From: Candidatus Bathyarchaeia archaeon
Lineage (GTDB): Archaea; Thermoproteota; Bathyarchaeia; Bathyarchaeales; Bathycorpusculaceae
NCBI GenBank assembly: GCA_038883855.1
Contig: JAVZLH010000020.1
Coordinates: 1 to 13,148 of the forward strand
DNA length: 13,148 nucleotides
Reading direction: 5' to 3'
Shown here: positions 4,388 through 6,749 of the stretch, one piece after another
Layout: each line of letters opens with the position of its first letter
Numbering within the stretch: position 1 is the stretch's first letter
Translations under genes and position numbers: made by a program
The notes under the pieces: generated by a model
The model's database searches: none
What the model was told of the DNA's origin: nothing
The model's input: the letters and a program-made list of their open reading frames with translations, nothing else

Positions 4388-6082
4388 TTAAGGAGATGTT
4401 GCTAGTTTTTTCCTAACCTTTTCCAGCATCTCGTCTAATTGGCGTTCGTCAGCCTCTATTTTTCGGAATAAGGGTTTAGCCTCAGCTATTATGTGATTTG
4501 GCGGCAAGGGTTCTAGTGCTTCACTCCATCTATGGTTGAAGACGCTTCCCTCCAGCCTCAAAGTTTTCCAAATTTCCTCTGCTGTAAATGGAATGAAAGG
4601 AGCTGAAACTATTGCCAATGCCTTAACAATTTGTACAGCCACATAGATGACGTTGGTTGCTTTGGCTTCGTCTCTTTTTATTAGTTTCCATGGCTCCTTA
4701 TCGTTTAAGTATTGGTTTCCCAAGCGACCTATGCTCATCATGGTGTTTGCTGCTGCTTGAAGCTTGCATTCCTCGATTTCTTCTGCAACCTCATTAACCT
4801 TTTCTTTAAGCATTTTCAGAATCTGTTTTGCATCTTCATCTAAGGTTTCAGTTTTCGGGATTACATTTTTGAAGCGCGTATTAACGAATTTCAGTGTTCT
4901 GTGGATGAAGTTGCCGAAGGTGTCGTTTAGATCTGCATTAACTTTTTCAATGAAGAGTTCCCAAGAAAAGTTTGTGTCCTTCGTTTCAGGTCTCGTCGAT
5001 ATTAGAAAGTACCGCCAATAATCCGGCGGGAAAAGCTCTAGGGCTTCATCTATCCATATGCCGATTCTCTGGCTTTTTGAAGCTTTTTCGCCTTTAAATT
5101 GGAGAAATTCTGTGGCTGAGACGTTCCATGGCAAGTTGTAATCTTCGCCTGAAGCTAAAAGCAGCGCTGGAAGAATTATCGTGTGGAATGGAATGTTATC
5201 CTTCCCCACAAAGTACAAGGTTTTCGCATTCTTGTCAAACCAGTATTCCCTCCACCCTTCGGGTTCACCATGATTCCTAAAGTACTCTATCGTTGCTGAA
5301 ACATAACCCAAAACAGCCTCAACCCAAACATAAATCGTCTTGTCCTCCGCACCGGGGAAAGGTGCTGATATCCCCCATCCAACATCTCTTGTTACGGCTC
5401 TTGGCTTTAGCCCCTCTCTAACAAGGTTTATGCTGAAGTTTTTTGTACTAGTTGAAAACTGCCTATTGTTCTCTAAGTATTCCGTAAGCTTATCTGAAAG
5501 TTTTGAGAGGTCAATGTACCAGTGTTTTGTATTTTTCACTACGGGCTTACCCTTGCAGATTACACAGTAGGGCTCAATCAATGTTGTGGGTTCTAAAAGT
5601 CTTCCGCAAGAGTCACATTGATCTCCACGTGCACGTTCATGACCACAATAAGGGCATTTTCCCTCAACAAACCTGTCCGGCAGGAAACGCTTACATTTTT
5701 CACAGTACAGCATCGGCGTTTCCTGCGTGAATATGTAACCATTTTTGTATATTTTCAATAGGTGGTTTTGGACGAACTCCTTATGCACGGGGCTTTCTGT
5801 TCTTGTGTAATTGTCGTAGGATATCCCCCATTTTTTGAACAACTCTGACACTTTCGCGTGGTTTCTATCCGTCAACTCTTTTGGATGTATACCAAGCCTT
5901 ACGGCTTCAACTTCTATGGGTGTGCCGTGTTCATCTGAACCGCTGACAAACAGAACATCTTCACCTTTTAACCTATAATATCTGGCAACAACGTCTGCGG
6001 ACAAGACAGACCCTACTAGGTTGCCGAGGTGAGGTGTGACATTTATGTAAGGCCATGCGGATGTGACTAAAACTTTTCCGAG
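4388..6082 (-). CDS. metG: Methionyl-tRNA synthetase, short form without C-terminal tRNA-binding domain; start codon apparently non-canonical
   Basis: GSDEHGTPI, four CxxC knuckles, YVWVEA, GKDNIPFH and KASKS (KMSKS equivalent). The frame stays open upstream of the track start (6004) and encodes GKVLVTSAWPYINVTPHLGNLVGSVL, including the HIGH motif (HLGN). The 5' end is placed at CTC 6082 by SD spacing. Confidence 0.93.
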   Translation of the reverse strand, partial: LGKVLVTSAWPYINVTPHLGNLVGSVLSADVVARYYRLKGEDVLFVSGSDEHGTPIEVEAVRLGIHPKELTDRNHAKVSELFKKWGISYDNYTRTESPVHKEFVQNHLLKIYKNGYIFTQETPMLYCEKCKRFLPDRFVEGKCPYCGHERARGDQCDSCGRLLEPTTLIEPYCVICKGKPVVKNTKHWYIDLSKLSDKLTEYLENNRQFSTSTKNFSINLVREGLKPRAVTRDVGWGISAPFPGAEDKTIYVWVEAVLGYVSATIEYFRNHGEPEGWREYWFDKNAKTLYFVGKDNIPFHTIILPALLLASGEDYNLPWNVSATEFLQFKGEKASKSQRIGIWIDEALELFPPDYWRYFLISTRPETKDTNFSWELFIEKVNADLNDTFGNFIHRTLKFVNTRFKNVIPKTETLDEDAKQILKMLKEKVNEVAEEIEECKLQAAANTMMSIGRLGNQYLNDKEPWKLIKRDEAKATNVIYVAVQIVKALAIVSAPFIPFTAEEIWKTLRLEGSVFNHRWSEALEPLPPNHIIAEAKPLFRKIEADERQLDEMLEKVRKKLATSP

Positions 6083-6090
6083 TTTTACGG

Positions 6091-6135
6091 CACCTCCAAA
6101 CGCTTTGAATTATAAACATAGATCTATTACTTAAA
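6091..6135 (-). promoter_or_regulatory. metG Shine-Dalgarno and candidate TATA boxes
   Basis: GGAGGTG at 6097-6091; TTTATAA at 6116-6110; TTTAAGTA at 6135-6128. Confidence 0.55.
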
Positions 6136-6136
6136 C

Positions 6137-6167
6137 AAAATGGAAAAAGTGTTGGGAAAAATGTGGG
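6137..6167 (-). terminator. Oligo-T terminator-like tract
   Basis: After tandem TAA TAA stops the minus strand reads CCCACATTTTTCCCAACACTTTTTCCATTTT, three T-runs. Confidence 0.5.
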
Positions 6168-6170
6168 TTA

Positions 6171-6749
6171 TTACTCTGTTTCTTCAGTTTTCCAGGCAAC
6201 TTTGGATTTGCGGCCTGAGAGGAATATTGCTGCAGCAAGTATTATTGTGCAGACGATCACTAGCACCACCAGAATTGTGAAGAGCATTACTAAATCATCC
6301 ATGTTTTGAAGCGCCATTGGATATGGCGTAACGATGCTTAACGGCACACTGTCTGTATGGGAGTATATGTTCCCTCCAAACTCGTAATAGACTATAAATC
6401 TGATAGCACCACTAACTGCCCTTGAATCGTCCGGTATTTTGAATGTATCTGTAGCACTATAATTTTCATCTTGAGAAATTACAACATTTGCGATCGTGAC
6501 AGTTTGGTTGCCCCCCCAGATGGGACTGTACCATGGATATTCTATTGTAATGTTTTTGAGAATGGCACCATCAGGACTAGAATTATACACCCAGAATTTT
6601 AATGTCCCAGATTCTCCTGGCTTATAGTATACTTTGTCGACGTAGCCATAAACGTCCAAGCTGGGAGCAGCCTTGGTTAGAGATACAAAAGCCGGCATCG
6701 ACGCTAATATAATAGCTACCGTAAAGGTTAAGATGGCTTTTTCTTTCAT
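6171..6749 (-). CDS. Hypothetical exported protein with C-terminal membrane anchor (probable Ig-like beta-sandwich glycoprotein)
   Basis: N-terminal signal-like segment (MKEKAILTFTVAIILASMPAFVSLTKA), DKVYYKPGESGTLKFWVYN beta-rich domain, four N-x-S/T sequons (NSS, NIT, NQT, NYS), C-terminal TM helix followed by basic residues. GGGTGA SD favours ATG 6749 over TTG 6752. Confidence 0.8.
   Translation of the reverse strand: MKEKAILTFTVAIILASMPAFVSLTKAAPSLDVYGYVDKVYYKPGESGTLKFWVYNSSPDGAILKNITIEYPWYSPIWGGNQTVTIANVVISQDENYSATDTFKIPDDSRAVSGAIRFIVYYEFGGNIYSHTDSVPLSIVTPYPMALQNMDDLVMLFTILVVLVIVCTIILAAAIFLSGRKSKVAWKTEETE

Follow-up and report, generated by a model that had tools for sequence, protein, structure and literature searches.

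A conserved CTC codon behind a Shine-Dalgarno sequence as the candidate start of metG in Bathyarchaeia

The gene metG, which encodes methionyl-tRNA synthetase (MetRS), lies on the minus strand of a stretch of DNA from a hot-spring Candidatus Bathyarchaeia archaeon, and the best candidate for its initiation codon is a CTC. The window (the whole stretch of 13,148 nucleotides that was analysed) is the entire 13.1-kb contig of a 1.11-Mb, 85%-complete genome (G000). An earlier note on this DNA had proposed the CTC as the apparent start, and the proposal is now backed by conservation of the codon among relatives, by alignment with outgroup genes and with the solved MetRS of Pyrococcus abyssi (1RQG), and by the match and spacing of a Shine-Dalgarno (SD) sequence. 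The best explanation of these observations, and one that we consider fairly probable, is SD-anchored initiation at a non-canonical CUC (or NUC) codon that selection has kept for a long time.

On the minus strand the metG frame consists of TAA (6112-6110), then FKAFGGAVKLGKVLVTSAWPYINVTPHLGNLVGSV, then TTG (6004-6002). Following the TAA it begins FKAFGGAVKLGKVLVTSAWPYINVTPHLGN, and translation finds no in-frame ATG, GTG or TTG between this stop and 6004. The mechanical list of open reading frames (ORFs) starts metG at 6004 (4388..6004, 538 aa, beginning with the TTG) because no earlier in-frame ATG, GTG or TTG is present. A start at that position would delete the first beta strand of the enzyme together with VLVTSAWPY and HLGN (6031-6020). 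The lack of a canonical start ahead of the HIGH motif, the GGAGGTG (6097-6091) that ends 8 nt before CTC 6082-6080, and an out-of-frame GTG-CCG-TAA at 6093-6085 had all been described in the earlier note; each is borne out by the sequence, and all of its coordinates hold.

Read from the CTC, the product is a complete MetRS (class I, archaeal/eukaryotic type). The ORF scores 603.8 bits against NCBIfam NF001100 (cut-off 587) and 552.3 bits against TIGR00398 (cut-off 336.35), the latter with residues 4-542 on profile positions 2-530, and its product matches 1RQG with an E-value of 4.8e-147. A HIGH-type motif, HLGN, follows VLVTSAWPY, and a KMSKS-type motif, KASKS, lies further on inside GEKASKSQRIG. 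A second metG, whose presence the earlier note had wished to see checked, was not found in the 85%-complete genome, where the other matches are different class I synthetases with E-values of 1e-7 or weaker. By its frame, its profile scores and the genome search, metG is read as an intact, single-copy, functional gene.

Loci for comparison were drawn from 40 relatives of the same family and order (29 loci besides the window's own; L005-L033 are the same-order relatives) and from 80 public genome records, which were sorted into Bathyarchaeia and others by record title (L034-L113). Of 110 loci collected, 104 could be anchored on the SAWPY...H.G motif; L027, L031, L032, L045, L064 and L082 remained unanchored, and L098 has too little upstream DNA. 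Once identical 90-nt regions had been collapsed, the set comprised 74 distinct loci from Bathyarchaeia and 23 from other lineages. The earlier note had asked which codon relatives carry at this position: CTC is kept in 54 of the 74 loci, followed by TTC (5), ATC (2), CTG (2) and ACG (1). The other 10 carry different codons, and most of these have TTG, ATG or GTG one or two codons away.

This uniformity is a property of the nucleotides. A control leucine four codons downstream (in K-V-L-V) is encoded by TTA in 27 loci, TTG in 22, CTA in 9, CTG in 5, CTT in 4 and CTC in only 2, while CTT, CTA and TTG never occur at the start position in the 74 loci; the varied leucine codons downstream, set against the fixed codon at the start, show a constraint on the nucleotides and not on leucine. 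Bases 2 and 3 of the start codon are invariant in a 30-sequence alignment. Because the arrangement recurs in independent genomes across the class, it is, on this comparison, beyond chance. Two hot-spring DNA runs provide a related observation: many short contigs of other organisms stack on 6040-6099, with a depth peak at 6068-6095, and diverge directly upstream of the SD, which reflects the conservation of the SD, CTC and GKVLV among co-occurring Bathyarchaeia.

A FastTree phylogeny of 96 MetRS sequences, with the start region left out, contains a Bathyarchaeia clade of 70 rows (support 97). CTC is found on all of its basal branches, and TTC, ATC, CTG, ACG and the nearby canonical starts are derived within it; just outside the clade are one sequence bearing CTG and one bearing ATG. 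The tree, whose deep nodes should be read with caution given the fast method, fits a change from ATG to CTG to CTC followed by long retention.

The position of the CTC coincides with the canonical start in other lineages. In outgroup metG genes (Desulfurococcales, Thaumarchaeota and others) ATG, GTG or TTG is followed by G-K/R-W-I-V, which corresponds codon for codon with CTC-G-K-V-L-V, and among the 23 outgroup loci the aligned codon is ATG in 6, GTG in 2 and TTG in 1. In the pairwise alignment, residue 3 of the 1RQG chain pairs with the K two codons past the CTC, which places Met1 of the solved P. abyssi enzyme on the CTC. Some outgroup loci also show unusual codons here. Four Sulfolobales metagenome-assembled genomes (MAGs; L106, L109, L110 and L112) have ACG at the homologous position; in L109 there is no canonical start at all and AGGTG lies 7 nt upstream, and the remaining three have GTG two or three codons upstream of the ACG. 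In a Promethearchaeota MAG (L102) metG reads AGGAGG, 9 nt and CTG, and none of the 27 codons displayed is a canonical start.

Alternatives to the codon are absent from many of the 61 loci with CTC, TTC or ATC. In 26 of them the frame between the upstream stop and the codon holds no canonical start; in 17 such a codon is missing all the way to TSAWPY, and in 9 the canonical codon occurs solely at the V or L of KVLV. The frame of L073, L076 and L081 opens just 5 codons before the CTC, at the SD itself, and in six loci including the window not even a near-cognate codon with one mismatch is found between the upstream stop and the codon. One locus (L023) constitutes a natural experiment: the CTC is lost, a stop stands one codon before, and a GTG has been gained at the V of KVLV.

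The SD is a true match to the ribosomal RNA and lies at a working distance. The 16S gene is not present in the 85%-complete genome, and relatives were used instead: in each of seven full-length small-subunit rRNA genes from relatives in the family the 3' end is GGATCACCTCCT, which complements all 7 nt of GGAGGTG. The motif GG[AG]GGTG precedes the aligned codon with GGTG ending 7 nt ahead in 40 and 8 nt ahead in 19 of the 74 loci, and no GGTG was found within 25 nt of the codon in 14 of the 74. Among long ORFs of this genome the spacer between GGTG and a canonical start peaks at 5-7 nt (46, 45 and 45 cases); a spacer of 8 nt occurs 23 times and one of 2 nt 18 times. These comparisons support what the earlier note had said of a perfect SD before the CTC. 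As a string, GGAGGTG-N7/8-CTC was also considered as a widespread signal and rejected, with 10 matches in five family genomes against 22 in a reversed control; among the 10, only the two metG matches open long ORFs.

Upstream of the codon the SD motif alone is conserved. The metG spacers are 7 or 8 nt long and take 38 different sequences in 56 loci; since both length and sequence vary, the region upstream of the CTC is non-coding. The out-of-frame GTG-CCG-TAA within it raises the question of termination and reinitiation, which the earlier note had put forward: the mini-ORF would be translated and ribosomes would restart at the CUC two bases on. Comparable mini-ORFs ending 1-2 nt before the codon are found in 26 of the 56 loci with GGTG, and in an HflX-like gene of this genome an ATG mini-ORF ends 4 nt before the candidate ACG start. 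However, the other 30 loci lack the mini-ORF, and loci with a 7-nt spacer have it in a different frame relative to metG from those with an 8-nt spacer. Its GTG lies within the SD and has no SD of its own, and a start codon for metG would still be required. Reinitiation is therefore considered very unlikely.

A start on another codon nearby is a further alternative. In that case a GUN codon at position -2 (GUA in the window, GUG in a third of relatives) or the codon at -1 would be used, perhaps by local scanning, and the CUC would be conserved for some other reason. GTN is present at -2 in 48 of the 74 loci (GTT 22, GTG 19, GTA 5, GTC 2), and three dnaG loci in relatives have ATG at -2. According to PMC6237735 (2018), the initiator tRNA on SD-led archaeal mRNAs locally samples P-site triplets after SD pairing, which would allow such scanning. 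The -2 codon elsewhere is ACC, ACG, AAT, AAA, ATA, ATT, ATC or GCT, however, and the -1 codon has 18 forms. A start at -2 would also lie 1-2 nt after GGTG, outside the 5-8 nt window of this genome, and what is conserved and aligned with the outgroup starts is the CTC/NTC alone. This alternative is judged unlikely.

The sequence further upstream bears on the same point. In 56 of the 61 loci a TTAAG[TC]A-type element is found 46-66 nt ahead of the codon; one further locus has it at 38 nt, and four lack it. In the window the TTTAAGTA-type element is conserved across the order and may be a promoter or the site of a regulator. As a generic promoter motif, TTTAAGTA is neither enriched nor positioned in this genome. 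Judging from its conservation, the element is probably a promoter. The transcript would then include the SD within a leader of short but variable length, and a leaderless start at the -2 codon would be less likely. A leaderless transcript would be expected to have its promoter at a fixed distance of ~25-30 nt from the start; the distance of 46-66 nt found here, and its variability, argue for a leader containing the SD. A genus-specific TTTATAAT (6116-6109) does lie ~25 nt before GTA 6088.

The conserved CTC and its flanks were also considered as part of an RNA structure or a regulator site, with a start that arises, or is circumvented, in the RNA itself, as by editing. The leader of the window can fold to -13.4 kcal/mol, and the sole helix that RNAalifold proposes at the codon is a 3-bp GAG/CUC pairing between the SD and the codon. 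The fold is not unusual, however, with a z-score of -0.57 and 56 of 200 shuffles as stable, and the RNAalifold consensus amounts to -1.5 kcal/mol, where a compensatory (both-sides) change is seen at only 1 of 7 predicted pairs, and in a single sequence. By RNAalifold and the shuffle test, no conserved leader secondary structure with covariation of the kind expected for a riboswitch or operator was found. C-to-U editing of CUC cannot yield AUG, GUG or UUG. An explanation at this level seems highly improbable.

An error in the sequence, whether of sequencing or assembly or a 1-nt deletion, had been held open in the earlier note, and is refuted by independent assemblies. A contig from another sample of the study that is the probable source of the window (X2) is identical to the window over 6020-6300, and one from a different study (X3) over 5976-6300, in both cases with 0 differences and 0 indels. 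In the same-genus genomes G001 and G002 the open frame is likewise 573 codons long and includes the CTC, a codon that dozens of more distant genomes also carry, and a related strain in X2 has 22 differences over 5900-6099, none of them listed within 6060-6099. Decay of the gene would be at odds with an intact frame of 564 codons that scores above the MetRS cut-offs, belongs to the sole metG found and shares the feature with the class at large. A frameshifted gene could in principle start at ATG 6119-6117, which opens a 48-codon frame that skipping one T before GGAGG would join to metG. This candidate was rejected because the ATG is not conserved, other letters standing there in the same-genus relatives (L005, L006) and in the related strain. 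Taken together, artefact, pseudogene and frameshift can be given next to no credence.

Perfect SDs are rare in this genome. Of 112 GG[AG]GGTG sites in total, just 12 stand before canonically started ORFs that are 60 codons or longer. Another four stand ahead of long ORFs that have no canonical start there, namely metG (CTC), a homocysteine-biosynthesis gene (HcyBio, CTC), dnaG (ACG) and a ScpA-like gene (CTG). Strong SDs thus accompany odd start codons, as would be expected if the duplex compensates for poor codon-anticodon pairing.

The homocysteine gene (PF01837 and two CBS domains; C17, codon at 2410; L189:301, L190) reads GGGGGTG, 7 nt and CTC, and with metG it is the only long ORF in the genome led by a perfect SD and CTC. 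The CTC position is ATG or TTG in some orthologues: of 17 orthologous loci 16 could be anchored, with CTC 6-7 nt after an SD-type motif in 7 and ATG or TTG in another 7. In three of the CTC loci (L193, L199, L202) an in-frame stop stands between the SD and the CTC, and the first canonical start lies inside the Pfam domain. In dnaG (C7, codon at 21423; L125:201, L131) GGAGGTG is followed by 7 nt and ACG, with no canonical start for 78 codons. Among 21 anchored loci of 27, the start position is ACG in 15 and ATG in 5; the three loci with ATG two codons upstream are ACG loci. The ScpA-like gene (C1, codon at 179132; L124:201) reads GGAGGTG, 8 nt and CTG, and its first canonical start is 47 codons downstream.

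Five further genes also lack a nearby canonical start (L126-L130) and have ACG, ATC or TTC behind SD-like motifs: HflX-like (C2:72200(-)), GltS/4Fe-4S-like (C2:61511(+)), DUF35-HMG-CoA-synthase (C6:41336(-)), CdvB-like (C5:56167(-)) and HisZ/HisRS-like (C22:1685(+)). Profiles reach the N-termini of HflX and HisZ, and by their profile matches dnaG and the HflX-like and HisZ/HisRS-like genes would lose conserved N-terminal parts if started from the first canonical codon. No orthologue of the HisZ/HisRS-like gene was found in the 30 relatives searched. A regulon of all methionine genes is rejected, since metK and two MetE-like genes start with ATG. The weak start codons of metG, the homocysteine gene and dnaG suggest a wider, possibly methionine-linked use. 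That the homocysteine gene has the same motif and CTC is a hint in favour of a feedback on the charging of initiator tRNA; dnaG and the other genes with odd starts, and the ATG of metK and the MetE-like genes, speak against a device confined to metG or to methionine.

Under the preferred explanation, translation of metG would start at CUC 6082-6080. The GGAGGUG, 8 nt upstream, would form a perfect 7-nt duplex with the 16S 3' end CACCUCC and so place the small subunit at the CUC, and initiation would occur on a codon that pairs with the initiator anticodon at its middle base only. The arrangement would have replaced an ancestral AUG, probably via CUG, at the base of the large Bathyarchaeia clade, and selection would have kept CUC (rarely UUC or AUC) since, the identity of the codon mattering and not the amino acid. 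We infer that ribosomes initiate on the CUC with initiator methionyl-tRNA (Met-tRNAi), and that MetRS synthesis is tuned or regulated through the weakness of the codon. An initiator-like tRNA with a GAG anticodon was not found among 31 tRNAs (aragorn with introns), a weak negative as the set is incomplete. RNA runs, which consist of assembled contigs and do not resolve transcript starts, contributed short contigs of relatives over 6037-6098 (X6, X8) and one exact contig at 6182-6300.

Several points weigh against this explanation. Of the three bases of CUC, two do not pair with the initiator anticodon CAU, and the genome has an ordinary initiator tRNA (A1:U72, CAU; aragorn with introns). It also encodes the fidelity factor aIF1, which in other archaea discriminates against non-canonical starts, according to PMC6237735. 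Canonical codons are not absent everywhere: GTG or TTG stands two codons upstream in 20 of the 61 loci, a possible start even though it lies only 1-2 nt from GGTG, and in 15 more a canonical codon is found farther upstream, its place varying. The 8-nt spacer of the window falls on the shoulder and not on the peak of the genome distribution, and the promoter is inferred from the conserved motif only. Finally, the relatives are phylogenetically linked, and the locus counts are non-independent events.

The pattern of bases at the codon can also be read differently. The chain might be started on the SD-placed ribosome without Met-tRNAi, by an elongator tRNA whose anticodon is GAN (Leu for CUC, Phe for UUC, Ile for AUC). 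With U and C invariant at bases 2 and 3 and base 1 varying between C, U and A, the codon shows the pattern that decoding by G34 tRNAs would produce, unlike that expected if CAU read it as a near-cognate; a G in third position is very rare (2 CTG among 74 loci). The only other gene with a perfect SD and CTC being that for a homocysteine enzyme, in which CTC recurs in the orthologues, also agrees with such a start. If true, a start free of Met-tRNAi would be a way out of a deadlock in which more Met-tRNA requires Met-tRNAi, and genes of methionine supply could still be started when Met-tRNAi is scarce. However, metK and the two MetE-like genes use ATG, MetRS itself has internal Met codons, and the ACG of dnaG and the CTG of the ScpA-like gene, behind the same type of SD, fit a general SD-driven leniency. 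No tRNA-Leu(GAG) was found among the 31 tRNAs detected in this incomplete genome, and we know of no elongator-tRNA initiation of this kind in archaea or bacteria. Initiation by an elongator tRNA is accordingly rated as rather improbable, and the same low rating is given to the broader proposal that MetRS and the homocysteine-forming enzyme are both begun on CUC/NUC by an elongator tRNA, or otherwise without Met-tRNAi, with a strong SD anchoring the ribosome.

The positions of the features discussed are collected in Table 1. The neighbours of metG on the contig are archaeal housekeeping genes, for a MiaB-like radical-SAM enzyme, FtsZ, a PHP-domain protein and Trm1, along with a MarC-family membrane protein, RNase HII, fibrillarin and Nop5. 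Elsewhere in the genome (C2:30916-31008) aragorn reports a 93-nt 'tRNA-Phe(aaa)', probably a misread intron-containing tRNA, just downstream of the gene for a 987-codon class I synthetase.

Table 1. Features of the metG locus in the window, with the basis of each assignment (BRE, B recognition element)
Feature	Position	Strand	Basis
metG coding region as proposed, CTC 6082-6080 to stop 4390-4388	4388..6082	minus	564 codons; MetRS models above cut-off
CTC, proposed non-canonical initiation codon	6080..6082	minus	aligned-codon counts in Bathyarchaeia and outgroups
GGAGGTG, Shine-Dalgarno sequence	6091..6097	minus	7-nt complement to 16S 3' end of relatives
Spacer CCGTAAAA, 8 nt	6083..6090	minus	non-coding by comparison
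GTG-CCG-TAA mini-ORF, out of frame, probably incidental	6085..6093	minus	comparable one in 26/56 loci
In-frame stop TAA closing the metG frame upstream	6110..6112	minus	sequence and translation
HLGN (HIGH motif) codons	6020..6031	minus	sequence and translation
TTG, first in-frame canonical start, past the HIGH motif	6002..6004	minus	ORF list and translation
TTTAAGTAATAGA, conserved upstream element, probably promoter (BRE/TATA-like), inferred	6123..6135	minus	TTAAG[TC]A-type in relatives
Out-of-frame ATG, considered as frameshift donor, rejected	6117..6119	minus	replaced in same-genus relatives and related strain

If initiation at the CUC is true, an essential gene would have, across a major uncultured archaeal class, no other start than a codon that agrees with AUG in its middle base alone. 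This would stretch what the archaeal (eukaryote-like) initiation complex accepts when an SD holds the mRNA, and would provide a natural, conserved test case for the trade-off between aIF1/aIF2 fidelity and SD strength. Together with the homocysteine gene it would suggest, in a form open to testing, that the choice of start codon is tied to methionine supply. On the practical side, a start search confined to ATG, GTG and TTG cuts metG to 538 aa without the HIGH motif, or lengthens it from a GTG that is there by chance; for dnaG and several other genes the same would hold, so that annotations and completeness estimates in this lineage are affected.

Among known systems, the +1 frameshifting of prfB resembles the metG locus: in each, a translation gene has an in-frame problem near its 5' end and a strong SD-like motif close by. 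A prfB-like programmed frameshift was nonetheless rejected: no conserved upstream ORF with a start of its own is present (the mini-ORF is patchy and its frames differ), there is no slippery site, and the distance from SD to codon behaves as an initiation spacer. Near-cognate initiation in eukaryotes (CUG, ACG, GUG) shares with metG the use of non-AUG codons by eukaryote-like machinery, and CUG starts with Leu-tRNA are a possible precedent for an elongator-tRNA start. However, eukaryotic near-cognates retain pairing at two of the three bases, rely on Kozak context and scanning, and usually give minor or alternative products, whereas the CUC of metG would depend on an SD duplex and give the sole product of an essential gene. 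Of ordinary SD-led initiation in archaea (PMC7531240), the 16S-complementary SD, the 5-8 nt spacer and the short leader are all present here; CUC falls outside the codon set (AUG, GUG, UUG) given there. Full-text searches of a collection with few subscription journals turned up no paper that describes a CUC start, or any non-canonical start of metG, in archaea, and an earlier description is possible.

The gene infC, which encodes bacterial IF3, begins with AUU and is subject to translational autoregulation, and the weakness of its codon is thought to be the point. Like infC, metG is an essential translation gene with a conserved odd start and a normal ribosome-binding site, and the marks of that class are found in it: no canonical start, an odd codon homologous to the starts of relatives, and a ribosome-binding site at a working distance from that codon. 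The two differ in domain and factors (IF3 versus aIF1/aIF2), and AUU is one base off AUG where CUC is two. To our knowledge MetRS has no role in start-codon proofreading, and the feedback loop of infC is established while metG is known here from its sequence. With these differences, metG would join the known class of genes with non-canonical starts, and it would be notable within it for two mismatches to AUG, for its class-wide occurrence and for the same codon on a gene of the methionine pathway.

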